This document shows positions 9,215-64,000 of a DNA stretch of 64,000 nucleotides, piece after piece. The DNA comes from Escherichia phage vB_Eco_mar004NP2. The notes under the pieces are model-generated. The model was not told the DNA's origin. It saw nothing but the letters and a program-made list of their open reading frames with translations, and did not search any database. The stretch lies in the sequence record OR896837.1. The stretch is one strand, 5' to 3'. Positions within the stretch are counted from its first letter, which is position 1; each line of letters begins with the position of its first letter. Both the position numbers and the translations under genes were made by a program.

Positions 9215-9243
9215 TTGCATAGTGCAAAAAATTTCTGTATAAT
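9215..9243 (+). promoter_or_regulatory. Strong T5-type (PN25-like) sigma70 promoter
   Basis: TTGCAT 9215-9220, 17-nt spacer, TATAAT 9238-9243, AT-rich upstream block, leader tagattcataaatttgagagaggag closely resembling the classic T5 PN25 promoter (from memory). Confidence 0.6.
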
Positions 9244-9274
9244 AGATTCATAAATTTGAGAGAGGAGTTTAAAT

Positions 9275-11472: not shown

Positions 11473-11501
11473 TTGCTTTCAACTCAGTTTTGTTATATAA
11501 T
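11473..11501 (+). promoter_or_regulatory. sigma70-type early promoter upstream of ligase subunit A
   Basis: TTGCTT 11473-11478, 17-nt spacer, TATAAT 11496-11501, leader tatttatataaattaatgagag. Confidence 0.5.
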
Positions 11502-11532
11502 ATTTATATAAATTAATGAGAGATACAAATAA

Positions 11533-12647: not shown

Positions 12648-12676
12648 TTGCTAAATGCTTAAATACTTGCTATAAT
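12648..12676 (+). promoter_or_regulatory. sigma70-type promoter immediately upstream of ligase subunit B
   Basis: TTGCTA 12648-12653, 17-nt spacer, TATAAT 12671-12676, leader atttatataaattgataaggaag. Confidence 0.45.
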
Positions 12677-12706
12677 ATTTATATAAATTGATAAGGAAGA
12701 AATTTG

Positions 12707-14246: not shown

Positions 14247-14263
14247 TCTGGTAAATTAAACCT

Positions 14264-14296
14264 AAGGGGAGGGGGCTATGCTCCTTCCCCTTTTTT
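14264..14296 (+). terminator. Rho-independent terminator
   Basis: 12-bp GC-rich stem (aaggggaggggg / ctccttcccctt) with 5-nt loop then TTTTTT. Confidence 0.65.
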
Positions 14297-14317
14297 GCAT
14301 TTAGAAGGCACGAAAGC

Positions 14318-25653: not shown

Positions 25654-26136
25654 ATGGCTGTAGATAGTAGAGAGAAAGGTAAACGTGGTGAATATCAGGT
25701 AAGAGATATTCTACGCGAGCGTACAGGTCTTGAGTGGGAACGTGTTCCTGGCTCTGGTGCTTTTGGCCAGAGCCACGGACTGAAAGGTGACATCTACCTT
25801 CCACCACAAAGCGGACACATTAGTAAATACTGCTTCGAAGTTAAGTGGTATAAAGATGATAATATATCAAGTAATTTATTTAATGTCGGTGAATCCACTC
25901 TAGAGAAGTGGTGGCAGCAATGCTCACGTGAAGGTGAGCAGATGAACTCCAAGTCTGCATTAATATTCAAAAAAGACAGAGGACAGTGGTTAATAGCTTT
26001 GGATAGCGCAGACCCGATGGTTGACAACTTAATGAGTCGTACCCATATGGTGTTAAATAAGAAAGACATGGAAATCGTAATTGGTTTATTTGAACCGTGG
26101 CTACATCATGCATCTGTTGAGGACTTAATTAAATAA
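25654..26136 (+). CDS. Putative PD-(D/E)xK-type nuclease
   Basis: GDIYLP ... CFEVKWYKD arrangement resembles a D...ExK active site; weak. Confidence 0.45.
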   Translation: MAVDSREKGKRGEYQVRDILRERTGLEWERVPGSGAFGQSHGLKGDIYLPPQSGHISKYCFEVKWYKDDNISSNLFNVGESTLEKWWQQCSREGEQMNSKSALIFKKDRGQWLIALDSADPMVDNLMSRTHMVLNKKDMEIVIGLFEPWLHHASVEDLIK

Positions 26137-27011
26137 TGAGTAAATCCTGGGGAAAATTTATTGAAGAAGAGGAAGCTGAAATGGCTTCCCGTCGTAACCT
26201 AATGATTGTTGATGGAACTAACTTAGGCTTCCGCTTCAAACATAACAATAGTAAAAAACCATTTGCCTCAAGTTATGTTTCCACTATTCAGTCTCTAGCA
26301 AAATCTTATTCTGCTAGAACTACAATAGTTTTAGGGGATAAAGGAAAGTCTGCATTCCGCCTAGAGCATCTTCCAGAGTATAAAGGGAATCGAGATGAGA
26401 AATACTCTCAGCGTACGGAAGAGGAAAAAGCGTTAGATGAGCAGTTTTTCGAGTATTTGAAAGATGCTTTCGAACTATGTGAAACTACATTCCCAACCTT
26501 CACTATTCGTGGTGTAGAAGCAGATGATATGGCAGCTTATATTGTTAAGCTGATTGGGCATCTATATGATCATGTTTGGCTAATTTCTACCGATGGTGAC
26601 TGGGATACTTTATTAACTGATAAAGTTTCTCGCTTCTCTTTTACAACACGTCGTGAATATCATCTTCGTGATATGTATGAGCACCATAATGTTGACGATG
26701 TAGAGCAGTTTATCTCTCTGAAAGCAATTATGGGTGATTTAGGGGATAATATCCGTGGTGTTGAAGGTATTGGGGCAAAACGCGGGTATAATATTATTCG
26801 TGAATTTGGTAACGTTCTGGATATTATTGATCAGCTTCCACTACCTGGAAAACAGAAATATATACAGAATTTAAATGCTTCGGAAGAATTGCTTTATCGA
26901 AACCTAATTTTAGTTGATTTACCTACCTACTGTGTGGACGCTATTGCTGCTGTAGGTCAAGATGTATTAGATAAGTTTACAAAAGATATTTTGGAGATTG
27001 CAGAACAATGA
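26136..27011 (+). CDS. D15: 5'-3' exonuclease / flap endonuclease (T5 D15 type)
   Basis: 291 aa; N-terminus and length match my recollection of T5 D15 exonuclease; FEN acidic clusters (DGTNL, EADD, DGDWD, GDLGDN). Confidence 0.95.
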   Translation: MSKSWGKFIEEEEAEMASRRNLMIVDGTNLGFRFKHNNSKKPFASSYVSTIQSLAKSYSARTTIVLGDKGKSAFRLEHLPEYKGNRDEKYSQRTEEEKALDEQFFEYLKDAFELCETTFPTFTIRGVEADDMAAYIVKLIGHLYDHVWLISTDGDWDTLLTDKVSRFSFTTRREYHLRDMYEHHNVDDVEQFISLKAIMGDLGDNIRGVEGIGAKRGYNIIREFGNVLDIIDQLPLPGKQKYIQNLNASEELLYRNLILVDLPTYCVDAIAAVGQDVLDKFTKDILEIAEQ

Positions 27012-34126: not shown

Positions 34127-36963
34127 TCCACAGACTGTTCTCCATCATCCCCTTCAGCCCTAATACGAAAATACAATTTTCTATTTATACCTAGAGCACC
34201 GCTGTTCTGGAGAGCAAAGTCTGCCTTATTATATGTTAATAAATAGTCATAAGTATACTGATTTTCAATACGTACACTTCTTAACATCCTATTTTGCGAA
34301 TCGTGTATTTCAAGTGTATAAAATATACTCTCTATTATATCTTCTTCAGGTATTTTATCCCAAGCTAGTTTTACATCTGGGCCAACAAACTCAGTTACAT
34401 CTCCAGAAGCAGTATTAGTTACCATAAAATTAGATACTACACTAAGGTTTTTAGCAGAGTTAAGTTCTATAGACAGAGTCACCGGGGAACTTCTTCTACC
34501 ATTAATATCTACTGCTCTTATCTCAAATATAGCCAGACCTGCTGGTTCCCCAATTATTTCTTGGATCATACGTTCGTTAGGATTGGTCTCTAACTGTTGT
34601 ACTATGTAAGGTTCGGCATGGCCTGAGTGCACAATAGAGTAATAAACTACATTATTGGTTAGACTCGGAAGCCAGGATAACTCACCATTTTTACCTATAG
34701 AACCAACTAAGCCATCAGGTGGCTTAGGAGTATACTTAAAATCTCTAGGAGGAAGAACGTTGTTACTAATATCTGGTATATCATTACCACTATTATCTAT
34801 TTGATCAGAGTTGATGAATACATCTTTTCCATACTCCTGTAGAGTAACATTTATCTTTCCTTCCCTAGAGTTTTCGACTTCATCTACTAAAAAGTACTTC
34901 TTATCCCATCCGTAACGGTCGTATGTAAATGCAATAGCATCATTAGGCTCAATACCAATGAATTGATATGGTAAAGAAAATGAGAGGGTTCTAGAATACC
35001 TAGATTTCTTAAGTTCTCTGTCTGCAAAACTTCTAGCAGTATAGTAGTTAGTTATATTTGCAAAAGATAATTGTAATTTTTTGTCTAGGTTCTTGTCCTG
35101 TTCCTTATACTTGGAGTTATAGAATGTAATGGAATTAGTTTTCCAGCTAAGGGCTGGATCTACGATAGATGCTTGAACTGAGTTGAATTTATTTCTACCA
35201 GTAGTATCTGATAGCTCCAAATCACCGTAAGTATCTAGAAAATTAATCTCTAATGGAGTATTAGAGTATTTTTCTACAGTAATCCTGTACTGGCCAGATA
35301 AGTTGTTAATAGCCCCACCGTAGGACTCTAATAAACCTTGCACATTTTTAAATACTGATTCAGATGTATCCAGAATAGTATTCATTTGTACTATTTGTCT
35401 ATTTTCTGCTAGTGGATCAGTCCACCCAACGTATCTCCAATATGGCTGCCAAGATACCTGATAGGATTCATCTATAATATCTAAAATAGCTGCTTCCTGT
35501 ATTAATTGCTGAAGAGGGAACTGATCAATGGTAATATTAGCACCGTATCTATCGGAGGTTAAGTAGTCAAGTGTTTGCCAAATACCATTTAAACTAGTAC
35601 TATTAGCAGTTACTCTACCATCAGAATGATAGACTTTTACTTTTTTACCTTGAATTTCAGCACTAACTTCAGGAATCTCAGTCCTATTTTCATTAATAGT
35701 GAAGCGCACCACTGCGTATGCAGTATCTAGTAGTTTATACCTAGCATCCCAGTACTCCGGTCCATTGCCATTCATATTCTGAAGGTAGAACCCACGTTCT
35801 TTCGCTATGTCTACTAATACTTCAGAAGCCGTTTGATCAGCTTTTCCATGATAAGTCCAAATCCTTATATCACCATTACCATCATTATACTTATATTCCT
35901 GACCATGCACAGAAGGACTACTAGAAGATATTCCTGATGCTATTCTTTGCATGGTGTCTCCTGCTACTTTTTTAACACCGAAACAGGTTCTAGCAGAGCT
36001 ATCATTAGAGTCCATACAAATCATAGGGTTATCCCCGAAGGAAAAGTCAAGAAAACCGTCTATCTCCCCTTCAGCAAAGGCGTATACTACATAAACTATA
36101 TTAGGATTGTGTAGTTCCGTATCCGCAAAAATAGGTATTCCTGGTATTTTCTGTACACCATAAACTACTGGTATATACTTAGCAGCAAGGTTAAAATCTA
36201 TATCTACTTCTTTAGTAACAGTCTCATAATACTTTTTAAGACTATAGCTTCTAGATAGGCCAAATAGCTTTTTCTTAGACTTTAGCTTGTATCTCTCTTC
36301 CTGTACCTGATATTTTGCTAAAATAGAGATACTTTTATTAGCATGAAAGAACCCATAATCTTCTTGGTACTCAAGTCTTTTAGCCCCGTTAGATGGAACT
36401 AATTGCCCTGCTACAACCTCAAGCCCTCTATGAGAAGCATCATCAGTAAATCTACCGTTAACCCTATCAAAGTCATAGAATTGGTTAGAACAATTCCAAG
36501 TAATTGTGGAGGTTCCAACCCCAGAAGTACTAATGTTGTCCTTAATACCCCCACCGGTAATTCTCCCTCTAAAGTATAATAAAGGGCCATTTGTGTCTGG
36601 GTCTACAGGTAAAATAGAACCATCCTCTGTAATAATTGCTTGGTGGATTGTTACTATTCTATCTAAAAAGGACACACCATTCTGCACTAATTTCAGTACT
36701 TCATCCTGCGCTGTACCCGTAATAGTAAAAGATAGACTGCCAATAGATAAATCTCTATTTTGTTTATGTGTGCTAATGGACTTAACCTTACCGGCCTGGT
36801 ACAAAATACCATTATATAGTACATCTCTAAAATAATCAGTTAAATAAATAAAAGCAGTACTAGTACCAGTAGAGCCAGGTAATTCTAGGGAAATTAGACT
36901 AGCAGTTTTTATTCTGCTATTATTTTTTAAGTAGTTTCTAGCACTATCTAGTATTTTCTTCAT
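34111..36963 (-). CDS. Baseplate hub protein (T5 pb3-like)
   Basis: 950 aa, downstream of the Dit-like gene. Confidence 0.65.
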   Translation of the reverse strand: MKKILDSARNYLKNNSRIKTASLISLELPGSTGTSTAFIYLTDYFRDVLYNGILYQAGKVKSISTHKQNRDLSIGSLSFTITGTAQDEVLKLVQNGVSFLDRIVTIHQAIITEDGSILPVDPDTNGPLLYFRGRITGGGIKDNISTSGVGTSTITWNCSNQFYDFDRVNGRFTDDASHRGLEVVAGQLVPSNGAKRLEYQEDYGFFHANKSISILAKYQVQEERYKLKSKKKLFGLSRSYSLKKYYETVTKEVDIDFNLAAKYIPVVYGVQKIPGIPIFADTELHNPNIVYVVYAFAEGEIDGFLDFSFGDNPMICMDSNDSSARTCFGVKKVAGDTMQRIASGISSSSPSVHGQEYKYNDGNGDIRIWTYHGKADQTASEVLVDIAKERGFYLQNMNGNGPEYWDARYKLLDTAYAVVRFTINENRTEIPEVSAEIQGKKVKVYHSDGRVTANSTSLNGIWQTLDYLTSDRYGANITIDQFPLQQLIQEAAILDIIDESYQVSWQPYWRYVGWTDPLAENRQIVQMNTILDTSESVFKNVQGLLESYGGAINNLSGQYRITVEKYSNTPLEINFLDTYGDLELSDTTGRNKFNSVQASIVDPALSWKTNSITFYNSKYKEQDKNLDKKLQLSFANITNYYTARSFADRELKKSRYSRTLSFSLPYQFIGIEPNDAIAFTYDRYGWDKKYFLVDEVENSREGKINVTLQEYGKDVFINSDQIDNSGNDIPDISNNVLPPRDFKYTPKPPDGLVGSIGKNGELSWLPSLTNNVVYYSIVHSGHAEPYIVQQLETNPNERMIQEIIGEPAGLAIFEIRAVDINGRRSSPVTLSIELNSAKNLSVVSNFMVTNTASGDVTEFVGPDVKLAWDKIPEEDIIESIFYTLEIHDSQNRMLRSVRIENQYTYDYLLTYNKADFALQNSGALGINRKLYFRIRAEGDDGEQSVEWASI

Positions 36964-37574
36964 AAACTTTCCCGTAAATTTAATGAGATGCCGGAATATG
37001 TTCCGTTATTATTTAATGTAGATCCGAAAGCATCACCATTCATGAGTTTTGTTCTAAATAGTATTCCGTTAAACACTGGTTTCTCAGCCCCAGTAGTAGT
37101 TATAAATAAATCAGGGTATAAGTTTATAGACCACGTATTGCCTGATTTATTGAATGATGTTATTTTATATACTTTTGGATGGTTAGATAGCTTAAATAGA
37201 TCCCCTGGTTTTGGAATACCTGTGAGAAGTCCTTTTGTATCCATAGTTATATTAGAACTCTTCTGTCCAGCAGGTATATTTACTAGGCTAGTATTACCTC
37301 TAACTCTAAAAGCTTCGTATTGTGGTAATATAACATCTATATAACCACCAGTACTTTTGTATTCTAGAATAAATGCATCTAGAACACTATATTCATCTGG
37401 AAATAATTCTGGATAAGAAATATTTATACCCCAGTATTGAGCAGATACCTTAACTTCGTTAACTTTACCATTTGGTAACTCATCACGAATTACTGGGTCA
37501 TTATCAATCAGGTTAACACTTTCGAATCCTAAGCCTGAAAGTTCTGGATTCGTGTATGGGTCTGGTAATCTCAT
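36960..37574 (-). CDS. Distal tail protein Dit (T5 pb9-like)
   Basis: 204 aa, immediately after the tape measure gene; strong SD aaagaggagaaattaact-ATG. Confidence 0.65.
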   Translation of the reverse strand: MRLPDPYTNPELSGLGFESVNLIDNDPVIRDELPNGKVNEVKVSAQYWGINISYPELFPDEYSVLDAFILEYKSTGGYIDVILPQYEAFRVRGNTSLVNIPAGQKSSNITMDTKGLLTGIPKPGDLFKLSNHPKVYKITSFNKSGNTWSINLYPDLFITTTGAEKPVFNGILFRTKLMNGDAFGSTLNNNGTYSGISLNLRESL

Positions 37575-41367: not shown

Positions 41368-41380
41368 GTTTTATTTTTCC

Positions 41381-41415
41381 CAATAAAAAAGGCTCTGGGC
41401 AAATCACCCAGAGCC
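41381..41415 (-). terminator. Rho-independent terminator/attenuator immediately upstream of the tape measure gene
   Basis: Stem ggctctggg / cccagagcc then TTTTTTATT on the minus strand; shares the sequence TTTTTTATTGGGAAAAATAAA with the element at 46361-46388. Confidence 0.55.
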
Positions 41416-41450
41416 AAGCCTCATCGTGGAACGCCCATTGGAGGAAACTT

Positions 41451-46350: not shown

Positions 46351-46360
46351 TTATTTTTCC

Positions 46361-46388
46361 CAATAAAAAAGGAGAGCCGAAGCTCTCC
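46361..46388 (-). terminator. Rho-independent terminator after the major capsid gene
   Basis: Stem ggagagc / gctctcc with cgaa loop then TTTTTTATT on the minus strand. Confidence 0.6.
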
Positions 46389-46409
46389 TTATCGGCTGAA
46401 AAGCCTGTA

Positions 46410-53217: not shown

Positions 53218-54975
53218 TTAGGTAAGGCGTTGAACTGTTACTCTTAATCTCGGTAGGAAAACTGCACTACCTAAACTTACGTGCATAACTACCCCTAACT
53301 CTACATTTCCATTCCCCAGATTTTTAGCAGTATATATAAAACTATTTCTACTTAGGGCATTGTTAGGTGTGTACCTAAAAGCAGATGTAGTATGAAAAGG
53401 TACTAAATACCCTACTGGTAATGTTAAAATCTGGTGGAATATTGCATCTCCATTACTATAGCTATATGCTCTTCTTCCTTGCACTTGAAACACACCGTTA
53501 TTCCATGTATTAGCAGGAACACCTGCACAGTTAAGGTTACCTGATATAACTTCAGTGGTAAGAATTACTGTAGCATTGCCACCCGGTATACCTAGCCCAA
53601 TAGTTGATAAACCAACGTATCTATCCCCTGTTCCCGGGTAGCTGGGAGTAATATCATCCCCCATGTAAGAGCTACCTACATTTCCACCAAAAAGTCGTAA
53701 TGGAACTGCTGATGGTCCCCAAACAACCCCGTGTTCATTACCGATAGTATTATCCCTAGAGTTTACATACCATTGCTTACCCGCTCCGAATTTGTAAATG
53801 CTAATTTGGGATTTAGCTCCACCATAGTCTACAGGAGACCATAATCCTCCATTACTAGACCCTACAAGTTCACACCTTGCCGTGGTATCCCCAAAAACCC
53901 CGGTATACGCTGCGTTATTTCCTATATACTCCATATCAGGACGGTAACCTAGGTTACCAAAAGCATTCTGATTTATAAATTTATACCCGGTATTAGGGAG
54001 ACTTACCCCTTTAATTATGAAATTAGAAGGAGATATAAGAATATCAGAACCAGTAAAGGGGTTGCCTGAAATACTCATTCCACCATTAGAGTACCTTAAA
54101 TTAAGAACATACCAAATAACCTTAGTAGGGGTTATATTATACCAATCCTGTAGTATTGTAGAGTCACCCGACTGGTTAGCTAAATTAGTAGTAGATCCCC
54201 TACAAACAAATCTGTTCCCACCGTCGTGGTACATAGTATTTACATTACCTGGGAGCCCTTGTCTAACCCCACCGTATCCACGTATATTAGAGTTGCAAAC
54301 ATAAAACCAATCATGCCCTCTATGTGCTGCTCCTAGAGGCGACATCCATCCAGGATCCCAATAGTACGGGTTATTCCCATCTACAGGTACTGTGCTACTA
54401 TTAGTAGGAAAACCTAATTGTGCAAAGGCTTCTGCAACAGTAACACCTACAGGAGCTCCCGCACCAGGCCTAACTATCCCATGGTAGGTACTATGTAACG
54501 TAGTACCACCTGTACCACTCCTAGAGATAGATTCTTCGTGCCATATCGATGGGTTATAATTATAAGTTCCAGATGCTAGACTATTACCAAATGCAAATCC
54601 ACTGGTTTGAGAAACACTAGCAAAAGATCTAAAGGGGTCTGCTTGAGTGGCAACTATAGTTTGACCAACTTTACTCTGAGTACCATTAAGAAAAGCTCTG
54701 TGAGTACCATTAATCTCAATAGCAGTTAGTATAACTCTACCAGGATCATTAGATTTAATATTTACTATATCAGGAGGCATCTGACATACGAAAAACCCAT
54801 TCCCGGCATCACCTAATCCTGCCTCATAAGTACCCTCAACTAGAACAAATGGCATATCACTATGAAAAATACTATTATTACTTGGACTATAGTGACGATT
54901 AATGTCACCCCCAGATTCAGTATTTAAAGATAGTACGGTCTTACCATCGCTATACTTTCCAGCGAAAAAACCCAT
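53218..54975 (-). CDS. Receptor-binding tail protein (T5 pb5/Oad-like)
   Basis: 585 aa, divergent from the adjacent lipoprotein gene as oad/llp are in T5. Confidence 0.6.
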
Positions 54976-55000
54976 ATAATCTCCTATTATAAAAATGTAT

Positions 55001-55029
55001 TTGCTTTCATCCCTCTATTTTGCTATAAT
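55001..55029 (+). promoter_or_regulatory. sigma70-type promoter for the llp-like gene
   Basis: TTGCTT 55001-55006, 17-nt spacer, TATAAT 55024-55029, conserved leader aattcataaattagaaatggagag. Confidence 0.5.
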
Positions 55030-55060
55030 AAATTCATAAATTAGAAATGGAGAGATAAAT

Positions 55061-55327
55061 ATGAAAAAGTTTGTAATTGCACTAGTTGCCACAGTTATAT
55101 TATCTGGTTGTGTACCTGCTCCCAAACCATTTTGTACGGGATTTGTAAAATCTTTTGGTGGTGCGGGAGAAGAATATTACGGTCTCAAGGTTCAAAAAGT
55201 TCGTATTAAGGGAGATCGCTTTCCAGTAGTACAGCTCCGTACTAAATTTGGGTGGTGGGATCTCAGTCAGTTTGACCTTAAATATGGTGATTGTAAATTT
55301 AAACTAGAGCAATCTAATTACCTGTAA
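55061..55327 (+). CDS. llp: Lipoprotein, Llp-like (receptor-blocking superinfection-exclusion protein)
   Basis: Signal peptide with lipobox ILSGC; 88 aa; divergent from the receptor-binding protein gene. Confidence 0.65.
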   Translation: MKKFVIALVATVILSGCVPAPKPFCTGFVKSFGGAGEEYYGLKVQKVRIKGDRFPVVQLRTKFGWWDLSQFDLKYGDCKFKLEQSNYL

Positions 55328-55494
55328 TTAGTATAAAACAAAAAGACATCCAAGTAAACTAAATTTTTTATTTCTTGGATGGTATATTGGCAGAAACCAC
55401 TATGTAAGAAAAGTAGAAGTCCTTCTAGGAGTCCACAAGCACGGTTGGTTATGCACATATTTTAAAATATCACATTTATGGGAGCACGAAAGAT

Positions 55495-55623
55495 ATGTCA
55501 AACAAAAGAAATAATAGACGCGGAGAGGTGTATGAGAGTTGGATAAATAGTTTTGGGTTCGGAACTCTCCTATTCTTTATTTTCGTAGGTTTTTGGTTAG
55601 CAGCTATGGCGGGGTGGATTTAA
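55495..55623 (+). CDS. Small membrane protein (42 aa), first of four overlapping tiny genes
   Basis: Own translation MSNKRNNRRGEVYESWINSFGFGTLLFFIFVGFWLAAMAGWI; ggag 10 nt upstream; below ORF-track size cut-off. Confidence 0.3.
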   Translation: MSNKRNNRRGEVYESWINSFGFGTLLFFIFVGFWLAAMAGWI

Positions 55624-55730
55624 TGGAATGGGTAATTATTGCACTATTAGGGATTGTGATTATTGGGCAATGTATTTTAGATAATCACTTAGCTAGAATT
55701 GAAACTTTATTGCTGGAGAAACGTAAATGA
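55623..55730 (+). CDS. Small membrane protein (35 aa)
   Basis: Own translation MEWVIIALLGIVIIGQCILDNHLARIETLLLEKRK; TAATG overlap with upstream stop. Confidence 0.25.
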   Translation: MEWVIIALLGIVIIGQCILDNHLARIETLLLEKRK

Positions 55731-55921
55731 TGGAAGTGGCAGCTACATTAATAGTAATATTAATCTGGGCAATTTTCATTGTTTCTTATACCGCGTATGT
55801 TCGCCTAAAAACTCTAGAGGCCCAGGTAAAGCAGCAACAATTTGCACTAGAAAAATTAGTAGAGCTTCAACGCTGTGATAGTACCCGTATTCTGCAAATT
55901 GAGAGGGAATTAGATGTTTAG
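55727..55921 (+). CDS. Small single-pass membrane protein (64 aa)
   Basis: ORF track; N-terminal TM helix then coiled-coil-like tail; ATGA overlap with upstream gene. Confidence 0.45.
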   Translation: MMEVAATLIVILIWAIFIVSYTAYVRLKTLEAQVKQQQFALEKLVELQRCDSTRILQIERELDV

Positions 55922-56159
55922 TATTGTAATTGCTTTTATTATCGGGATACTCGCGGGAGTTTTCGGGACGACTGCGGCAATCAATAAGCATCGTAAATAT
56001 ATTGCGGGAGTGACGCGGGAGATTGCGGAAAGGGAGCGGAAGTTTGACGAGAAACGTGCGGAGTTTGAGCGGGAGTGGTCGGATGGATCTCGGGCGTCGC
56101 GGAAGAGATTCCGTGAGTTCAGACCAGAATACAGGTTTGATGACCCTTCTATGCGCTAA
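55914..56159 (+). CDS. Small single-pass membrane protein (81 aa) with Arg/Glu-rich tail
   Basis: ORF track; N-terminal TM helix; 3' end lies in the first copy of the 76-bp tandem repeat. Confidence 0.45.
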   Translation: MFSIVIAFIIGILAGVFGTTAAINKHRKYIAGVTREIAERERKFDEKRAEFEREWSDGSRASRKRFREFRPEYRFDDPSMR

Positions 56160-56264
56160 TTTGACTTTTGCCAATTTCTTTGGATTACGTGAGTTCAGAC
56201 CAGAATACAGGTTTGATGACCCTTCTATGCGCTAATTTGACTTTTGCCAATTTCTTTGGATTAC
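56113..56264. repeat. Perfect 76-bp tandem duplication (2 copies)
   Basis: 56113-56188 is identical to 56189-56264. Confidence 0.95.
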
Positions 56265-56336
56265 GTACGCGTGGGTGTGTCCAGTGGCCCCCCAGATGAG
56301 AATGAGTCTCATTACCGCCCGGTACTTAGCAGGCTA

Positions 56337-56373
56337 ATAGTCACGGCATGGTATCATTACACACCGTGACTAT
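56337..56373. terminator. Hairpin between convergent genes (possible terminator)
   Basis: 10-bp stem atagtcacgg / ccgtgactat with 17-nt loop; flanking U-tract weak. Confidence 0.3.
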
Positions 56374-56387
56374 TTCAACTTTAATTG

Positions 56388-57122
56388 TTAGGCAACTTTT
56401 AATTTCTCAATATATTGTTGAGGACTGCAACTATATTCTGCGCGTTCTTCCTCGGTCATACCTTCCCAGCATAATTTTAAACGGTCAGCTAGGAATTGAT
56501 AATCATTATCATCGTCGAGAGATTCATCAATAAAGGTTTCACCTATCAATGCCACGCCGATTGATAGAATATCATTAACGGCTTGTGCGTCCAGCGTTTT
56601 AAATCCGTATGACGCTGCCGCTGATAGCACGCCTTTATGATCATCAATCATTGTAAAATCAGCGTTAGGATATAACTGTTTAAATAATTCAAAATAATAA
56701 GATTTATATACTGCGTCTTTGCTGTGGTATATTTCGCTAACCTTATCAGCTTTAAAATATTTGTGTAGTGTATCGCGGGAAAATACGCGGATATTACTAT
56801 TACCACGACCGCGCAACCCTTGTTTACGCAAGAAATAATAGTCCGACTTACTCATCAGTCGAGCGGTGCAAATAATGTTTAAAGTATTTGCGTCATTCAT
56901 GCACTGGCGCATATATTCAACCAATGGCAATAAAGTATCTTGCATTATTAAATGGTGTTTACACGCTTCATTTTTATACTTATTTAAATCTAAATTGCCC
57001 TCGCTATCAAAGCAGGGTGCTATACGATGGAAAGAATTAATGATAGTGCCGTCTAAATCCCAAATCATGACGCGGGAAATATGCGGGAAGCTGCGGGAAA
57101 GATTCATGATAGCTTTATTCAT
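56388..57122 (-). CDS. dmp: HAD-family 5'-deoxyribonucleotidase (T5 Dmp-like)
   Basis: 244 aa; HAD motif I WDLDGTI near N-terminus; sits in a pre-early-type module with A1/A2-like genes. Confidence 0.7.
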   Translation of the reverse strand: MNKAIMNLSRSFPHISRVMIWDLDGTIINSFHRIAPCFDSEGNLDLNKYKNEACKHHLIMQDTLLPLVEYMRQCMNDANTLNIICTARLMSKSDYYFLRKQGLRGRGNSNIRVFSRDTLHKYFKADKVSEIYHSKDAVYKSYYFELFKQLYPNADFTMIDDHKGVLSAAASYGFKTLDAQAVNDILSIGVALIGETFIDESLDDDNDYQFLADRLKLCWEGMTEEERAEYSCSPQQYIEKLKVA

Positions 57123-57201
57123 TTGTTACGTTCTCCATTTAAGGGATTAGATTAATTCAGCATTACCCGCTATTTATAAGCGGGTAATAATAAATTAACT
57201 A

Positions 57202-57594
57202 TTAAAGACCATAAGCCAACGCATCGGCGATAAAACTAACATCCTCACCTGATACATGGGAACGAATCCCCGCACAAGTATATACTTTTGCAGAAATCAA
57301 TTGATCATCAAGGCAAGCGGGGCAAGGCGCGACAACTGCAAAGGCTAGACCGGATTTTACTGCGTCGATGATAATCGTTTCTTGTTTCGCCGTGTCAACA
57401 TAAACGCCTTTTGCTTTAATATGGCTAGTTAGTTTGCCTTGCATATATGCAAATGTTGTAACCTGCAAAGCGTCATTGAAATCTAGCAATTCATCAATAA
57501 CGTGCCCCGCCTCGACGTGGTAACGCTCACCATTAGAATAAACCAGAACAATTGAGGATTGAGCGCGGTCAAATGGAATATTTTGCTTTTTCAT
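57202..57594 (-). CDS. Hypothetical pre-early-module protein (130 aa)
   Basis: ORF track; PCPAC motif; conserved leader upstream. Confidence 0.5.
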   Translation of the reverse strand: MKKQNIPFDRAQSSIVLVYSNGERYHVEAGHVIDELLDFNDALQVTTFAYMQGKLTSHIKAKGVYVDTAKQETIIIDAVKSGLAFAVVAPCPACLDDQLISAKVYTCAGIRSHVSGEDVSFIADALAYGL

Positions 57595-57632
57595 GTTTAT
57601 AAAACTCCAATTAGTTTAATAATGGATTTAAT

Positions 57633-57890
57633 TTATTTGATAATAATCTGCATCTGGTACGGTGTTAATTCACCGTTTACGGGTAAATTATTATCGCTTA
57701 GCCACTCATAAAAAGCACCATCATCGTCAAAGGGTACAATATCATTATCACTATAATCGACCGTAATAATCCCATCAGTATTAGTTTTGGCGGCTAGAAT
57801 AGGCCCGAAGCTGTAAACTTTATCGGATTCCATTTCATCCGGTGAAATAAATGCTTTTTCGTCTAGCGTTTTGGGTAATGTAACTTTCAT
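57633..57890 (-). CDS. Small acidic protein (85 aa; candidate DNA-mimic / host-takeover factor)
   Basis: 16 Asp/Glu versus 6 Lys and no Arg by my count; location in the pre-early-type module. Confidence 0.5.
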   Translation of the reverse strand: MKVTLPKTLDEKAFISPDEMESDKVYSFGPILAAKTNTDGIITVDYSDNDIVPFDDDGAFYEWLSDNNLPVNGELTPYQMQIIIK

Positions 57891-57946
57891 TCTAATTTAG
57901 CTCCTGTAATAGCGGCTATATTTCAAGCCGCTAGGGGATTAATTAT

Positions 57947-59611
57947 TTACGCAAAGAATTTACCGTTTTTAAAGTCAATCAAAGTGCGCTGACCGTTTGC
58001 ATAGGTAATTAAATGCGTTTGCGTCCAGCTTGACGCGCCAACGTTGTAACCCATGTCCAGACTACCAGCTACGCCAGCGGTATACACGCCGCCATAAATG
58101 CTGGCGGTGTGAGTGTGTCCGGTGTTTAATTTGCCCAATTTCTTAAATTGTTTAGGATTGCCACGGCTGCCGTTAATGCCGTTGTGACCGTGTACGCCGC
58201 ATTCAATGCCTACAATCTTGAAAGATTGGTCAGTAGTTAGAAAAATGGCGTTAAACTCACAACCTGCAACCTTGCGCAGCGCATAATCTAGCACGTTGAA
58301 AGTATCGTCTTTTTCTGCAATAGCTCCATAAATCGCGGCATTTAGGCGGTGATATAGTTCCGCGTTTGCTGGATCGTCTTTAATGTTAGCATTACGATCA
58401 TCAAGCCAACGGGATAGCGCCAAATCGTGATTAGATTCAACAATGATTGTTTGCGAGAAATCACGTTCCATTGATTCCAGCACGCGCCCCGTATCGATAA
58501 GATCATCTAATACCTTATCACGTCCGGCGGCGTATTGTTTTGCTAGGAATACACCGGATGCGCGGTTGTGATGGTTGCGTGATGTAAAATCATGCACGTC
58601 ATGGATAAACTGATATTTAGGCTTGAGAATATCAAGCAAGCTATTTTCGCCAGCCCATGACGCAACGGCACAATCATCATCTAGTTTTTCTGCGTGAATA
58701 TCGCCGTATTGCAAGCCTAAAACATGCCCCGATGTCTCATAGCATCCGGCAGGAGTAGCGCACACATTCAGATCATAAAATACCCCGCTTTCGTCCATCG
58801 TTTCGAGCTGGCGTACAAAAAATTCCCCGTCCTCGTCGAACTCGACAATTAGCGCACCGAAGTTATGCAGCGCCTCGGCCTTTTGTCCTGCTTTCTGCTG
58901 AATGTAGTTTTTGAGCGTTGCCGTTCCGGTTGAGTACATACGGCGCACTACTTCACCTTTTAAAGCTGGCACGCTTTCAGCGGTAATTTTAGCGTGACCA
59001 ATTGCCAGACCTTCCAGATTAAGCGCCGTTGCAGTTTCAGCGAATCCAGAAAGCGGATAATCTGCGGTTGGCAAAACGTTAATTTCAGCCATGAAAGCAA
59101 AACGGCGGTTATTTAAAAACACGTTTTTATTGCAGATATATTTGTCAAATGCGGAATCATATTTTATTCCTTCTGCACCCTCGCCATTTTGAAAACCGTT
59201 TTTGTTATAAATAAACTTGCTAACCAGCAAATCAGCGCCGATATATTTAGCAAATTGCTCCAATGAGGCTAAAAAGTTTTTATGCGGGAAAGTATTATTC
59301 TGAATCGACGTAATAATAAAGCGTTTACCCTGCTTTACTTCCCATTGCTCAACCGTGCTAGAAACAATCCCCGCCGCTTCTGGACGCTCATCGTTTTTAA
59401 TGGCTTTTGCTACTTTCGCCGCTTTCGGTTTAGCTGGTTTATTTGCTTCCAACCAGTCGCAGATAGCGGTCGAGTGTTTTGTTGTATCGTAGACCGCTTT
59501 TGATATATCGTCGCAGACCTCCAGTTTAGTAGCGCGCAGACGTTTACCATAGAAATTAAAGTCAGCGGCCATTTTCAGGATAACGGTTTGTTTTTCTGTG
59601 GAAATAATCAT
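57947..59611 (-). CDS. A1: A1-like pre-early protein (metallophosphoesterase-type nuclease-like)
   Basis: 554 aa; calcineurin-like motifs GDIHAEKLDD, VESNHD, GHTHTA; size close to T5 A1 from memory. Confidence 0.7.
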   Translation of the reverse strand: MIISTEKQTVILKMAADFNFYGKRLRATKLEVCDDISKAVYDTTKHSTAICDWLEANKPAKPKAAKVAKAIKNDERPEAAGIVSSTVEQWEVKQGKRFIITSIQNNTFPHKNFLASLEQFAKYIGADLLVSKFIYNKNGFQNGEGAEGIKYDSAFDKYICNKNVFLNNRRFAFMAEINVLPTADYPLSGFAETATALNLEGLAIGHAKITAESVPALKGEVVRRMYSTGTATLKNYIQQKAGQKAEALHNFGALIVEFDEDGEFFVRQLETMDESGVFYDLNVCATPAGCYETSGHVLGLQYGDIHAEKLDDDCAVASWAGENSLLDILKPKYQFIHDVHDFTSRNHHNRASGVFLAKQYAAGRDKVLDDLIDTGRVLESMERDFSQTIIVESNHDLALSRWLDDRNANIKDDPANAELYHRLNAAIYGAIAEKDDTFNVLDYALRKVAGCEFNAIFLTTDQSFKIVGIECGVHGHNGINGSRGNPKQFKKLGKLNTGHTHTASIYGGVYTAGVAGSLDMGYNVGASSWTQTHLITYANGQRTLIDFKNGKFFA

Positions 59612-59708
59612 ATTAATAAAACTCCATTAAAGGGATTAAAAAACGTTTGTTATTGGCAAATATTGCCAAATATAACGCCTTGAATAATAGGCGTTATAAT
59701 TTGCAACA

Positions 59709-59906
59709 TTAATTTAAAGGCATAAGGCTAGAACTAACACCACAAGCAATGGCGGCAATAAAACAAATCAGACCTAAACGCTTTGCCAATTTAGACTTAC
59801 GTTTAAAATAATATGAGTCTAAATCATTTTGAAAATAAGCGAATAATAACGAGGCCGCCATAATAAATAAGCCTAGAATTAACGATTCAGTGGGGTAAAA
59901 GATCAT
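59709..59906 (-). CDS. Small two-TM membrane protein
   Basis: ORF track; two hydrophobic helices separated by a basic loop (KRKSKLAKR). Confidence 0.45.
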   Translation of the reverse strand: MIFYPTESLILGLFIMAASLLFAYFQNDLDSYYFKRKSKLAKRLGLICFIAAIACGVSSSLMPLN

Positions 59907-59962
59907 TTTAAAACTCCAGTCAAAGAGAAATTATAGTGGGGAATATTCCCCGCTAATTAAAT

Positions 59963-60370
59963 TTATTCACCTGCGGCCTGTTTTACTTCATCGGCAACGC
60001 CTAACAGTTGCGCTACGGCGTCCAGCGTTTCAAGTTTTGCACTTTCCAGACTTGCCAGACCGTCGGCGTCTTTAATAATGCCGGAATCAATAGCATGTTT
60101 AGCGATAACGCGTACATAGTGAGCTTTGCGGATTGAGCTACCGCCGCCAACTTTGCGAGGCTTATCGCTTTTCTGATACGCTTTTGCGCTGGTCAATTTT
60201 GATCGAACAGACACGGGAGAAGACGCGCCCACTGCTTTTGCAATCTCTTTTAAACCGTCGCTATTTGCGAAATCTAAACCGTTTTCATTAATTAACTGCT
60301 GGTACATAGAAACAGCTTTTTGAGTGTTTTCTTCATTCCAAGCAAATTTTGCGGTTTTAACGTTAGTCAT
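59963..60370 (-). CDS. A2: A2-like pre-early DNA-binding protein (tentative)
   Basis: 135 aa following the A1-like gene; size and position only. Confidence 0.45.
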   Translation of the reverse strand: MTNVKTAKFAWNEENTQKAVSMYQQLINENGLDFANSDGLKEIAKAVGASSPVSVRSKLTSAKAYQKSDKPRKVGGGSSIRKAHYVRVIAKHAIDSGIIKDADGLASLESAKLETLDAVAQLLGVADEVKQAAGE

Positions 60371-60466
60371 GGTAAAAACTCCTATTAGTTTAATTTAAGG
60401 GATAAGATTAACATAATGTTAATCGTTATATCCCCCGAACTACTGGGGGATATAAAAGTAACACTA

Positions 60467-60718
60467 TTACGCTACAGCTTCCCATTTTTCGTTACGCTGT
60501 ACAACCTTTACAACGTCGCCGGATTTAACGCGAACGCTAAAAACGGTTTTGCCGTTGTTACTACGTTCATTTTCAGCGTATACCGCGTCGATTGTATCAA
60601 ACGGCATAAGCGCCGCACCTTTAATACGTTCGGCTTTTCCGGTTAGTTCATCCGTTTTAGTAACGAAAGGAATAAAAACGGATTGACCAATTTTAGGCGC
60701 GGTAATAACGTTTTGCAT
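60467..60718 (-). CDS. Hypothetical protein (83 aa)
   Basis: ORF track; conserved leader upstream. Confidence 0.45.
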   Translation of the reverse strand: MQNVITAPKIGQSVFIPFVTKTDELTGKAERIKGAALMPFDTIDAVYAENERSNNGKTVFSVRVKSGDVVKVVQRNEKWEAVA

Positions 60719-60754
60719 AGTATAAACTCCAAGTTATTTAGGGGATTGTTCCGC

Positions 60755-60781
60755 ATTACCTGCTAGAAAGTAGCAGGTAAT
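60755..60781. repeat. Perfect 11-bp-arm palindrome with 5-nt centre
   Basis: attacctgcta-gaaag-tagcaggtaat, about 35 nt upstream of the 60718 start codon. Confidence 0.8.
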
Positions 60782-60917
60782 AAGCAACAATCCGCTCACC
60801 GCTATAATCAATTTAAGGAACTCCACGCAGGCTGCTATATCCCAGTTAGGGGGCAGGATGATTTATGGGGAATCACCTAACCGTCAAATTGTATCAAGTT
60901 ATCGCTCTCATCGAACT

Positions 60918-61206
60918 GGGTACATCTTAAAGCCTATCGGCTAGGGTGTCAAACTGTTTTTTGCAGTTTTTTATGATTTTCTTTCAGGTCGATCATAATA
61001 TTACGCCAGATCATTTCTAAACCCTGCTGGCGGCCTTTCTTGTACTGAGCAAATCGGTATTTTACGGATTGCTGGGCTATTGTCAACAATTTTTTAGTAG
61101 TACCATCTAATTTTTTAGCTGGTTTACCAGTGATCAATAAAGTTTGTTTCATATCTGCGATTCCTTATAATATAAGTTTACCGCCGATAGACTTTAAGAT
61201 GTACCC
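60918..61206. repeat. 24-bp inverted repeat pair (23/24 match) bracketing a small basic-protein gene
   Basis: gggtacatcttaaagcctatcggc (60918-60941) versus reverse complement of gccgatagactttaagatgtaccc (61183-61206). Confidence 0.85.
60949..61152 (-). CDS. Small basic protein (67 aa, Lys-rich)
   Basis: ORF track; 16 Lys/Arg versus 4 Asp/Glu by my count; SD aagga 9 nt upstream; enclosed by the inverted repeats. Confidence 0.45.
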   Translation of the reverse strand: MKQTLLITGKPAKKLDGTTKKLLTIAQQSVKYRFAQYKKGRQQGLEMIWRNIMIDLKENHKKLQKTV

Positions 61207-61575
61207 AATTTTTAAAGAGCGCGGCGGTAAACTTCCCGCCGTGTAGTTCGTCATTGCCGCCCTACGAGATAAATAATAGCAAATAGTAAAAATGGCGCAA
61301 CCTTATTTTTGTAAAGAAACGTAAAGACAAAATGCCACCGGACACCGTGCGGCGACCTGGGCGCGGCGCACTAAAATTAAAGGAAACGGGCGCGCGAATA
61401 CCATAAAACCCAGCAGGTTGGCAAGTAATTTTTTCATTTATATTTGCCTTGCCCTACTTGACAAAAACTAAAAAGCTCGTGGTAGCGATAAACGAGGGTA
61501 GGCAATGCAATGGCATGGCTAAAAACTTCATCGCGTTATAGGGCGTTTTAGGCGCATTCTAGCCTTGTTGATAAC

Positions 61576-62017
61576 TTATCCCCAAAAGCAAAAATGAAAT
61601 TTTCCTAGTTATCCACTTGACTTTTATTTTCCAGTGGATAACTACTTATTTTATGAAATAAATTAATTGACTTTTATTTGTTAGTATGCATCGGAAAGAT
61701 AGCAGACTAATAGTTGCTAGGATGATAATCATGCTGGTGGATTGTAATAGCCGGAACTGTTAGCAGACTATTAATCACGGAAAATCTCATTAGCCAACTA
61801 ACTATTTCATGATATATAATATACTTATAAATTAATGAGAAATAATAATTATAAGAAATCGTAACCGATAGAAATAATAACTATAAGAAACTATCGTCCT
61901 AAGTGAGAACCACTATCGTTTAAGTTATCCACAAGTTTATTAACAGCACAAAATGATTTGACACGATAGGCGACGATATAAGGACTTATCCACAGACTTA
62001 TCCACATGTTATCCTAC
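61576..62017. promoter_or_regulatory. DnaA-box cluster in a 1.1-kb non-coding region (origin / injection-stop-like region)
   Basis: TTATCCACA-type boxes at 61609-61617 (+), 61633-61641 (-, palindromic pair with 15-bp spacer), 61925-61933, 61986-61994, 61998-62006, plus weaker 61576-61584 and 62009-62017. Confidence 0.6.
61839..61890. repeat. Two 20-bp direct repeats (iteron-like)
   Basis: gaaataataattataagaaa (61839-61858) and gaaataataactataagaaa (61871-61890), 19/20 identical. Confidence 0.8.
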
Positions 62018-62298
62018 TGTATAAATATACAGGGTAAAAAGGTAGTGTTAACAACTGCAATCAATTTTAGGCGGCCTAAAACGCTTTCTAACGAGCTAAA
62101 TGCGGTGGGGTAATATTAAAGTGAAGCCTTCACCCGTCGCCCTGGTGGCTTCACCGTGTTTTGCTCTTTACTGTACCGCTGCGCGGTTAGCATAAAACTA
62201 GGCGCTAGGCAAGGAAAATAAAAAGGTAAAATAATATTTGCCTATGCTAGAAAATTGCCTTTATCATTCACTCACCGATTAACGAGGGAGGCCAACAA

Positions 62299-63060
62299 AT
62301 GAGGCTATATAAACCAGGTAACGCAACCGTCTTAAAAGGTGCGCTGCGTAACCTGCTGGACGGTAGCAGAACAACCAGCATTAAACATTTTATTAACAAG
62401 GCTGAAACTATTCACCAAAACTTTTTTGGTGATTTCGATGCCTATGATATGAATAGTTTTCTACCGTTATATAAACAAGGGGCAACGCTTGTTTTATATA
62501 ATCAAGATTATCAATTGCTCACTAGTCGAGGGCCGGATACTGATTTCATAATCGTAAAAGGTAGCACAGTAAAAGCCTATGATACTGGGGCAGGCTTAGA
62601 AGTTTTTTCAATAGAAAATTATGAAGCCAACCCCAATGATCTTTATGATATTGAAAATTTTCTTGATTCATTTTGGCGTTATTTATCAGTTGGCTGGAAT
62701 CGGTCGGATTGTGACGGGTATCGTTTCGCGGCTGTAATGGCCTTTGATGATAACGGTAATTTTTTGTTACCGTCGGAAGTGTACCCTTATGTATATGAGG
62801 GGGATATTGAAAGCGCGGGCTTTTCTTTCTGGAAGGAGGAAGATCAGCCTATTGACAACACGGAAAAACATGCTGTAAATTCTAACACTCAAAGCGTTAA
62901 CACTCAAACTACTGAAAACAAAGGAAATAATACCATGACCAAGATCGCTAATATCGTTGCCGCTAATAAATCCGCTGTTGTAAATGCTGCAAAACTGGAA
63001 GCTGGCAAAATTGCATTGACTCAAATCACGAAAGTAGCGGCTAAAAACCGCCGTTTATGA
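62299..63060 (+). CDS. Hypothetical protein (253 aa)
   Basis: ORF track; SD gggagg upstream. Confidence 0.55.
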   Translation: MRLYKPGNATVLKGALRNLLDGSRTTSIKHFINKAETIHQNFFGDFDAYDMNSFLPLYKQGATLVLYNQDYQLLTSRGPDTDFIIVKGSTVKAYDTGAGLEVFSIENYEANPNDLYDIENFLDSFWRYLSVGWNRSDCDGYRFAAVMAFDDNGNFLLPSEVYPYVYEGDIESAGFSFWKEEDQPIDNTEKHAVNSNTQSVNTQTTENKGNNTMTKIANIVAANKSAVVNAAKLEAGKIALTQITKVAAKNRRL

Positions 63061-63290
63061 TTAAAGGTTATATTGATACGCCGATTGGTCGGGTAGTTAT
63101 TGCTAACCTGCTGAGCGTAGCGGTTGACCAGTACGCCCCGAATAACCAGAAAGCGAAAGCGGTAGCAGGCGCAGCTATGGAAGCGGCAATGCTAGAAATG
63201 GTGCAAAGTTTTAACATCGCTGAAATGATTGATGAAATGGTGAAAGGTATCGATATTTCTACTTTTACCACTAGCACCGAAAGCGAGTAA
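63057..63290 (+). CDS. Hypothetical protein (77 aa)
   Basis: ORF track; ATGA overlap with upstream gene. Confidence 0.45.
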   Translation: MIKGYIDTPIGRVVIANLLSVAVDQYAPNNQKAKAVAGAAMEAAMLEMVQSFNIAEMIDEMVKGIDISTFTTSTESE

Positions 63291-63355
63291 TAATATTTAG
63301 TGGGGATTGTTTCCCCGCTTTACTATTCCCTTATTAATTAATAGGAGGCTAATAA

Positions 63356-63850
63356 ATGGCTGAGGAAAAATATGGGTTTTCGCTAGGGGAAGTGAGCAAG
63401 GCTAAACATGATATGATCATTTTGGTCGATTGTCATACTGGCTATTGCGGTGAAGGGAATACTGAGGAATATTTTGTTCCTGCTGGTACGGATCTCGACG
63501 CTTTCGCTCATGAAATGGCTGTTGATAATGCTTCTCGTTTTGGTAGCGATGGCTATGAAGATGAGGAAACGGGCGAATGGTATGAGAATGATAATGTATA
63601 TGCAAGCCTTTATCATTATCAATTAAGTAAATCCGGCACATATGTAAACGGCGGCGATCCTATTAATTCCGTCATGAAATTAATTATTAAATATGGTGGC
63701 GCTGAAATAATCGGAAATAAAGCGGTAATATACGCAAACCGACTAAAACAGCTTGTTTATATCCCTGATAGTACCCGATGGGATGAATACGCTGTTTTGC
63801 ATGACGAATTGAAACGATGTTTCAATATTGAAACATTACAAGTAGTTTAA
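63356..63850 (+). CDS. Hypothetical protein (164 aa)
   Basis: ORF track; strong SD taggagg; followed by a terminator-like hairpin. Confidence 0.55.
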   Translation: MAEEKYGFSLGEVSKAKHDMIILVDCHTGYCGEGNTEEYFVPAGTDLDAFAHEMAVDNASRFGSDGYEDEETGEWYENDNVYASLYHYQLSKSGTYVNGGDPINSVMKLIIKYGGAEIIGNKAVIYANRLKQLVYIPDSTRWDEYAVLHDELKRCFNIETLQVV

Positions 63851-63863
63851 TGTAAAGTTTTGT

Positions 63864-63892
63864 AAAGGTCGCCATAATTGGTGGCCTTTTTT
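63864..63892 (+). terminator. Rho-independent terminator (stem includes G-U pairs)
   Basis: aaaggtcgcc / ggtggccttt stem followed by TTTTTT. Confidence 0.45.
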
Positions 63893-63956
63893 GTTATAAT
63901 GCCTTTACACCGTTTAAGGACGGTTGAAAATTTTCCCAAAAATTTGGAGGCTTAAA

Positions 63957-64000
63957 ATGGTTGCTTATTCTTCTGCTAGTCATCTGTTTACCGCGCAAGG
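63957..64000 (+). CDS. Hypothetical protein, N-terminal fragment (continues beyond window end)
   Basis: ATG 63957 preceded by ggagg at 6-nt spacing; only 14 codons in window. Confidence 0.35.
   Translation, partial: MVAYSSASHLFTAQ

Follow-up and report, generated by a model that had tools for sequence, protein, structure and literature searches.

What are the palindromes in the gaps of the leftward pre-early (first-step-transfer) operon of T5-like phages for? The question was posed on a stretch of 64,000 nt from Escherichia phage vB_Eco_mar004NP2 (record OR896837.1; the whole stretch is called the window), a T5-like phage that matches Salmonella phages PMBT29 and SPLA5b at 99.8% identity over bases 56300-61200. 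The operon lies on the minus strand and holds seven genes (Table 1), of which dmp (deoxynucleoside-5'-monophosphatase), A1 (DNA transfer protein) and A2 (DNA-binding protein) carry the annotations of these 99.8%-identical records. An earlier sequence-only reading had placed a perfect palindrome and a shared leader motif in every gap, had taken the palindromes for operators, processing sites or attenuators and not for simple terminators, and had concluded that one regulator or RNase acts on the whole module. Comparison with related operons shows the hairpins to be structures of the RNA and neither operators nor simple terminators. The reading favoured here, in which intercistronic stabiliser or processing hairpins are combined with an S1-type enhancer motif and promoter-proximal boxA antitermination, is tentative and was given a probability of about 0.45.

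Upstream of the leftward operon the T5 reference record has P-D/E20 and P-H22 as promoters, and it annotates no terminator within the operon; A1 is annotated as required for pre-early shut-off and A2 as a DNA-binding protein.

Paired stems in the gaps between the genes

Fifty-one loci with relatives of A1 were taken from IMG/VR (L-numbers are the labels of these compared loci), and 28 distinct T5-like operons (79-93% DNA identity) were aligned with that of the window to give 29 operons, which are mutually related, so that counts over them are not counts of independent events. The distant A1 homologues from IMG/VR (L039-L052, 36-47% amino acid identity) had another gene context, with neither hairpins nor motif, and were uninformative.

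The gaps total 534 nt and hold 6 perfect hairpins of 8 bp or longer, where shuffled sequence would give 0.106 (P about 2e-9); of the seven hairpins of 10 bp or longer in the window, four are in gaps of this operon. Folding of the sense-strand RNA gave z-scores from -2.7 to -6.2 for the gaps, the gap at 57595-57632 aside, where no hairpin was found (z = -0.56); across the 29 operons, a hairpin of -8 kcal/mol or lower was present in 174 of 195 gaps. A palindrome in every gap is therefore true of most gaps and not of 57595-57632. The five hairpins listed at the outset all exist, with the stem of 57162-57188 corrected from 9 to 10 bp and that of 60426-60455 from 10 to 11 bp, and four elements absent from that list were added (59671-59698, 59653-59669, 59934-59955 and 56336-56374).

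In the alignment of the 29 operons the stems were 96.5-100% canonically paired and 3-6 pairs per hairpin had changed on both sides; when the 3' partners were slid by 1-3 columns as a control, only 29-54% were paired. Phages of Klebsiella, Pectobacterium and Proteus, with A1 73%, 67% and 44% identical, respectively, carry hairpins of unrelated sequence in the corresponding gaps. Compensatory change, together with unrelated hairpins in the same gaps, argues that what selection preserves at these positions is the pairing and not the sequence. Stem cells that were not Watson-Crick pairs comprised 67 G.U against 5 A.C on the transcribed strand (14 against 4 when counted by position), an A.C cell on this strand being a G.U pair on the opposite one, and this excess of G.U gives a direction consistent with folding in the mRNA. 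The sense fold was more stable than the antisense fold for 3 of 6 hairpins and marginally so for a fourth. When 54000-64000 was scanned with the covariance models of Rfam 15, the best hits scored 16-26 bits (E > 0.2 throughout), where the gathering scores are 40-298.

The orthologues of 60755-60781 in L023 and L026 have the loop inverted (GAAAG for CUUUC in the RNA) and the stem retained. The change suggests an inversion through the inverted repeat, and it shows that recognition of the loop sequence does not take place.

Like intrinsic terminators, the elements are G+C-containing hairpins past a stop codon; unlike them, they lack the U-tract, at least 6 U in the 8 nt 3' of the stem being found at 0 of the 174 hairpins. 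Textbook terminators with hairpin and U-run are present elsewhere in the window (gaps 2636-2734, 14247-14317, 41368-41450 and 46351-46409, and 63864-63889, the last after the rightward gene starting at 63356), and a terminator scan of the window flagged within the operon only the hairpin after A2, weakly. That these are not simple terminators was thus correctly read from the sequence. The hairpins start 0-13 nt past the upstream stop codon, and the distance to the next Shine-Dalgarno (SD) sequence varies from about 5 to 60 nt; by this spacing they go with the cistron upstream, on its 3' side. The leader of the T5.003-like gene is the exception, with its hairpin between motif and SD.

The proposal of operators for one regulator was not sustained. 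The palindromes differ from gap to gap, and a search of the whole 64 kb with the half-sites of three of them returned the sites themselves or chance-level matches only; each palindrome is unique in the 64 kb, and the only shared arm found was ATTACCYGCT, common to two hairpins. The lack of common half-sites argues against an operator set for one DNA-binding protein. Pairing, which evolves by compensation, is conserved over sequence, except at the invariant palindromes 60406-60424 and 59653-59669.

Leader motif and boxA elements

All seven genes of the operon have GGAG 7-10 nt before the ATG, preceded across an A/U-rich spacer of 0-10 nt by a motif with the consensus (W)ATCCCTT(W)AAT. A shared leader motif followed by GGAG is therefore present as claimed, with the exact form AATCCCTTAAAT confined to dmp and variants or degenerate forms elsewhere: close variants before A1, A2 and the T5.007-like gene, and before the other three genes forms that are degenerate in the window (AAATCCATTATT; AATCCCCT, then a hairpin; and TTTCTCTTTGAC, in relatives TTTCCCTTTGAC) and read clearly in relatives. 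In the Klebsiella, Pectobacterium and Proteus phages the motif reads ATCCCATTAA, ACCCTTAAAT and TTCCCTTTAA, respectively. The succession of motif, GGAG and start codon occurs six times in 64 kb, four times in the leftward operon, once in the rightward pre-early operon (63327) and once elsewhere. The rightward operon has the same design once, at 63299-63356 (+), with hairpin AGTGGGGATTGTTTCCCCGCT, then ATTCCCTTATTAATTAATAGGAGG and the ATG at 63356, and the early genes carry a different common leader, CATAAATTTGAGAGGAG, after their promoters. Hairpins and shared motif together do form a module-specific arrangement.

In the predicted folds the motif is unpaired, except before the T5.007-like gene, where AAUCC pairs as the 3' side of an outer stem (GGAUUGUU/AACAAUCC) that is conserved. 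Pairing of motif and SD was rejected as a sequestering structure, the helix being just 3 bp (UCC/GGA), as was pairing with the G-rich 3' arm of 60426-60455, which is possible in the window and lost where that arm covaries in relatives. If one factor acts on the whole module, only the shared leader motif could be its handle; S1, which is ribosome-associated, accounts for this motif no less well than a regulator or RNase dedicated to the module would.

Three loose antisense copies of the motif (26329-26340, 26379-26390 and 26737-26748, minus strand) lie inside the plus-strand gene 26136-27011. Their clustering is odd; their count matches a rough composition-based estimate of about 2 chance matches, and they were rejected as true motifs. 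A 30-codon open reading frame at 60734-60826 (-), with a GTG start (or TTG after GGAG), crosses the leader hairpin and ends at a TAA within the leader motif; indels of 2 and 7 nt break its frame in relatives, so that it is probably not a leader peptide.

Canonical boxA follows pre-early promoters in six lineages. It has the form YGCTCTTTAA[A/C]AATTT on the sense strand of both divergent operons (L001, L020, L031, L033, L053, L054, L055 and L058), and the promoter-proximal copies agree with the boxA consensus (U/C)GCUCUU(U)A on the sense strand near a promoter. In the window, the leftward sense strand reads CGCTCTTTAAAAATT at 61221-61207, after a hairpin CGGCGG-GAAGTTTA-CCGCCG, and this boxA is invariant from GCTCTTTAAAAA onward in 29 of 29 sequences; the rightward sense strand reads TGCTCTTTAC at 62162-62171. 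Elements of this kind are also present in T5, in Klebsiella, Pectobacterium and Vibrio phages and in IMG/VR relatives. Directly after promoters, UGCUCUUUAACAAUUU is found in L020, L031, L033, L053 and L058 (the promoter being the P-D/E20 homologue in some relatives), and the Proteus phage has CGCTCTTTAACAA about 20 nt past each pre-early promoter. In L020, L031, L033 and the Klebsiella phage a canonical boxA follows the homologue of the promoter that precedes 60810-60826, and the copy there has decayed in the window's lineage to GGAGTTCCTTAAATTGA. The T5-like copies match the published rrn boxA-spacer CAC UGCUCUUUAACAAUUUA and lambda nutL CGCUCUUAAAAAUUAA (PMC2724277). By their sequence and placement, these elements suggest that pre-early transcription uses Nus-factor antitermination; a literature search for boxA together with phage T5 found no paper.

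The leader motif, which reads (A/U)AUCCCUU(U/A)A, is not a boxA by sequence, since the boxA G at position 2 and U at position 4 are replaced; G2 is the base altered in the lambda boxA5 mutant (G2->U), boxA16 being another mutant (PMC2724277). With boxA of rrn and lambda nut (UGCUCUUUAACAA / CGCUCUUA; PMC2724277) it shares C-x-CUUUAA(U), it often has a hairpin before it, in the way that boxB stands before boxA in rrn leaders, and true boxA is present in the same module; unlike boxA, it reads AUCCCUUUAA and stands in one copy per cistron, directly upstream of the SD.

At 61170-61245 (-), AAGTTTACCGCCG can pair with the upstream CGGCGG, forming the small hairpin, or with the downstream CGGCGGTAAACTT, forming a 13-bp stem with boxA in its loop, and the two are mutually exclusive. 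The loop of the small hairpin is inverted in L012 and L015.

Table 1. Genes and elements of the leftward pre-early operon, with the boxA elements of both divergent operons (window coordinates)
Feature	Coordinates	Strand	Remarks
T5.007-like gene	60467-60718	-	
A2	59963-60370	-	
T5.005-like gene	59709-59906	-	
A1	57947-59611	-	
T5.003-like gene	57633-57890	-	
T5.002-like gene	57202-57594	-	
dmp	56388-57122	-	
Stem-loop	60740-60796	-	Leader of T5.007-like gene (upstream); inner perfect 11-bp hairpin 60755-60781, GAAAG centre on + strand; outer stem takes in AAUCC of leader motif; arms extend imperfectly to 20-26 nt; z -3.8, centroid -29.7 kcal/mol; 19 pairs, 98.9% canonical (25 distinct sequences), 5-6 compensatory pairs
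Hairpin	60426-60455	-	11 bp; 11 nt past T5.007-like stop; 100% canonical, 4 compensatory pairs, all four Watson-Crick types at one pair
Palindrome	60406-60424	-	GATTAACAT-A-ATGTTAATC; 9-bp arms, 1-nt centre; second hairpin of gap before A2; sequence conserved, stem invariant in relatives; single occurrence in window; kept in part in Pectobacterium phage as GATTAACATTAACGTTAGTC
Hairpin	59934-59955	-	UAGCGGGGAAUAUUCCCCACUA; 7 nt past A2 stop; one C.A mismatch in window, perfect in relatives
Stem-loop	59659-59710	-	Begins at T5.005-like stop codon; inner perfect 10-bp hairpin 59671-59698; imperfect arms of 20-26 nt; z -3.4; 99.4% of 20 pairs canonical, 3 compensatory; in 24 of 25 sequences the sense fold is more stable than the antisense fold
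Palindrome	59653-59669	-	TTGGCAAATATTGCCAA; gap before A1; unique in window; never varies in relatives; overlaps 3' arm of 59659-59710
Hairpin	57910-57933	-	8 bp; conserved loop UUGAAAUAU; z -2.9; between motif AATCCCCT (57933-57940) and GGAG (57901-57904) of T5.003-like gene
Stem-loop	57152-57198	-	After T5.002-like gene; inner perfect 10-bp hairpin 57162-57188; imperfect arms of 20-26 nt; -25.7 kcal/mol, z -6.2; compensatory change in 6 of 10 pairs
Hairpin	56336-56374	-	Downstream of dmp stop; 11-nt perfect arms; z -3.9; T5 AY587007 equivalent (69-105) annotated as putative terminator
Motif AATCCCCTAAAT	60736-60747	-	Before T5.007-like gene; close variant; GGAG 60727-60730, ATG 60716-60718
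Motif TATCCCTTAAAT	60393-60404	-	Before A2; close variant; GGAG 60379-60382, ATG 60368-60370
Degenerate leader TTTCTCTTTGACT	about 59918-59930	-	Before T5.005-like gene; GGAG 59914-59917, ATG 59904-59906
Motif AATCCCTTTAAT	59626-59637	-	Before A1; close variant; GGAG 59622-59625, ATG 59609-59611
Degenerate motif AAATCCATTATTAAAC	57609-57632	-	In hairpin-less gap; GGAG 57605-57608; relatives ATCCCTTATTAAAC
Motif AATCCCTTAAAT	57137-57148	-	Before dmp; exact; GGAG 57133-57136, ATG 57120-57122
Canonical boxA CGCTCTTTAAAAA	61209-61221	-	Leftward pre-early transcript, upstream of T5.008-like gene
Degenerate boxA-like GGAGTTCCTTAAATTGA	60810-60826	-	Between P-D/E20-type promoters and leader stem-loop
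boxA-like TGCTCTTTACTGT	62162-62174	+	Rightward pre-early operon leader; hairpin GGTGGCTTCACC before; also in T5 and L017

Proposed mechanism and its alternatives

In the favoured reading, the elements would work in the polycistronic mRNA of the leftward pre-early operon, as opposed to its DNA. The U-tract-less stem-loops after most cistrons would block 3'->5' exonucleases, set the boundaries of endonucleolytic processing and insulate each translation start from upstream sequence, and the three longest (20-26 bp) would be the best candidates for cleavage by RNase III. A 3'-protective role of the hairpins suits an operon that lacks a terminator and is read toward the genome end. Each cistron would restart translation from its own cassette of motif, spacer, GGAG, 7-10 nt and AUG, for strong independent initiation, the spacer being replaced by a hairpin in the T5.003-like cassette. 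Promoter-proximal boxA would probably make RNA polymerase termination-resistant and processive by Nus-dependent antitermination, and internal hairpins would not attenuate transcription by a polymerase so modified.

Intercistronic mRNA-stabilising hairpins are familiar from the repetitive extragenic palindromic (REP) elements of the E. coli malE-malF operon. The elements described here are likewise stable, U-tract-less stem-loops just past the upstream cistron, where an exonuclease block and segmental stability would be expected; unlike the REP family, with its repeat consensus, they have each their own sequence, unrelated to the others, and only pairing is conserved. For the motif, comparison was made with S1-dependent enhancers. 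The 'epsilon' sequence of T7 gene 10, UUAACUUUAA, is an A/U-rich translational enhancer. The rrnB boxA, when upstream of an SD, is an established S1-binding 'A/U-rich translational enhancer' (PMC2176067, citing Komarova 2002 and Mogridge and Greenblatt 1998), and of the mechanistic models available it is the best for a single-stranded, boxA-like sequence next to each SD. Like both, the leader motif lies directly 5' of the SD, is similar in CUUUAA/CUUAAA and is predicted to be single-stranded, and from its likeness to boxA the motif (W)AUCCCUU(W)AAU is read as a class-specific S1-type enhancer or standby site; unlike both, it has an invariant CCC, and its enhancer activity is putative.

Several observations weigh against this reading. 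A generic A/U-rich S1 site does not need the strictly conserved CCC, which may mark a more specific partner. The difference in stability between sense and antisense folds is absent for two hairpins, and at two palindromes, 60406-60424 and 59653-59669, the sequence itself is conserved and no covariation is seen; a protein site would fit this too, so that the choice between RNA and DNA is ambiguous for these two. The hairpins are not obligatory, one gap being always without one, and the order of parts is not fixed, given the position of the T5.003-like hairpin. The compared sequences are related, with the effect on the counts stated above, and the sole RNA-seq study of a Tequintavirus found in the literature search gives per-gene abundance only (PMC13250531).

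A more far-reaching form of the proposal, in which the pre-early module would be built around the host's rrn antitermination and ribosome-loading machinery, is doubtful. In it, boxA after each promoter would recruit NusB-S10, and the boxA-derived AUCCCUUWAAU before each SD would be a dedicated site for S1, S10, NusB or a pre-early phage factor; the class would be preferentially translated and then switched off together, which would be the A1-dependent shut-off.

Of the competing explanations, the one that survives best, unlikely as it is, holds that the hairpins serve as weak terminators without a U-tract, as pause sites or as attenuators, by which promoter-proximal genes would be expressed more, with boxA modulating read-through. 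Terminator-like placement directly past stop codons would fit, as would UAUAAUUUCUCUUU after the hairpin that follows A2 (flagged as terminator-like), a U6 run in the gap before A1, 15 nt past a second small hairpin, the boxA elements upstream, and the mutually exclusive structures in the A1 gap (59653-59669 and 59659-59710). These points are set against the 174 hairpins without a U-tract and the textbook U-run terminators used elsewhere in the same genome, and strong polarity would be costly for the essential, late-acting functions of A1 and dmp, which are distal. Moreover, rrn-type boxA complexes chiefly counter Rho-dependent, not hairpin-dependent, termination. The introduction of PMC2724277 also gives Rho-dependent termination as their main target. 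Processing sites or attenuators, as first suggested, are still compatible with the data.

The processing form of that suggestion is less likely again: the hairpins would be RNase III sites like R0.3-R1.3 in the intergenic gaps of the T7 early genes, yielding monocistronic messages, each protected by a 3' hairpin. The two settings agree: in both, the host polymerase transcribes the operon that is expressed first, and almost all gaps contain a hairpin. RNase III needs about two helical turns (roughly 20 bp or more), mostly paired, and this length is reached, with internal loops, by 60740-60796, 59659-59710 and 57152-57198; the remaining stems, of 8-11 bp, are too short for canonical substrates. 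Even in the long hairpins the outer stems covary little, RNAalifold having dropped that after the T5.002-like gene; no Rfam or literature record was found, and the T5-type hairpins, known here from sequence alone, have no sequence relationship to the T7 sites.

Promoter-stem-loop (PeSL) units of T4-type phages have been proposed as joints for cassette swapping. That the hairpin-leader units are mainly recombination joints of this kind, with short shared homologies that would let T5-like phages swap cassettes, is improbable. In its favour, several relatives lack the T5.003-like gene or have it replaced, the breakpoints lying in the gaps on either side, the spacer between A2 and the T5.005-like gene has two alleles with unrelated hairpins, and hairpin loops are inverted in some relatives; in L005, a 127-bp tandem duplication (orthologue of about 57790-57920) starts at the 3' arm of the hairpin ahead of the T5.003-like gene and covers the leader and first 100 nt of that gene. 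Mosaic joints at gene borders are, however, general in phages and need no dedicated elements, and recombination, more likely a side effect than a selected function, leaves the compensatory upkeep of stems and the placement of a motif by every SD unexplained.

Least probable is an action of the palindromes on DNA, as operators or cruciforms for a pre-early protein such as A2 in module shut-off or DNA transfer, which the annotations of A2 and A1, the conserved sequences of GATTAACAT-A-ATGTTAATC and TTGGCAA-N3-TTGCCAA and the arm shared by two hairpins would suit, but which is opposed by the lack of a half-site common across gaps or found elsewhere in the window, by compensatory stem substitutions and the swapping of whole hairpins for unrelated ones, by the tolerance of G.U on the transcribed strand only, and by the location of the sites between genes within the operon, not at promoters.

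Prior annotation, neighbouring features and significance

In T5 record AY587007 the orthologue of 57162-57188 is annotated as 'palindrome A' and that of 59934-59955 as 'palindrome B', with no function; none of three T5 records annotates the remaining hairpins, their covariation or the leader motif. An internal promoter that AY692264 proposes in the gap before A1 was rejected, no acceptable -10 hexamer being seen there by eye in the window. Literature searches for T5 transcript mapping and for the motif sequence returned nothing relevant, the Davison 2015 review (Bacteriophage 5:e1086500) lying outside their scope. Within the literature searched, the hairpin set, the covariation, the pre-SD motif and boxA are new beyond the T5 annotation, apart from the two 'palindrome' features.

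Strong T5 early promoters (TATAAT, then ..CATAAATTTGAGAGGAG..) were seen at 2700-2735, 9240-9275, 11500-11533, 12670-12704, 36960-37010 (-) and 55030-55061. DnaA boxes (TTATCCACA) cluster at 61560-62010, in the untranslated region between the divergent operons, with copies at 61925-61933, 61987-61995 and 61998-62006 and an inverted pair at 61606-61644; the cluster matches the DnaA-box arrays described by Davison in the injection-stop (iss) region of T5-like phages (bioRxiv 10.1101/866236).

T5 is a classical model phage whose pre-early genes are strongly expressed and shut off within minutes. The cis elements defined here family-wide, namely covarying intercistronic hairpins, a class-specific pre-SD motif and rrn-type boxA past the promoters, are concrete, mutable targets for work on mRNA processing and stability, translational control and Nus dependence in the first minutes of infection, and the leader cassette may serve as a compact translation-initiation part. 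Together, the hairpins and the motif look like an undescribed layer of post-transcriptional control.

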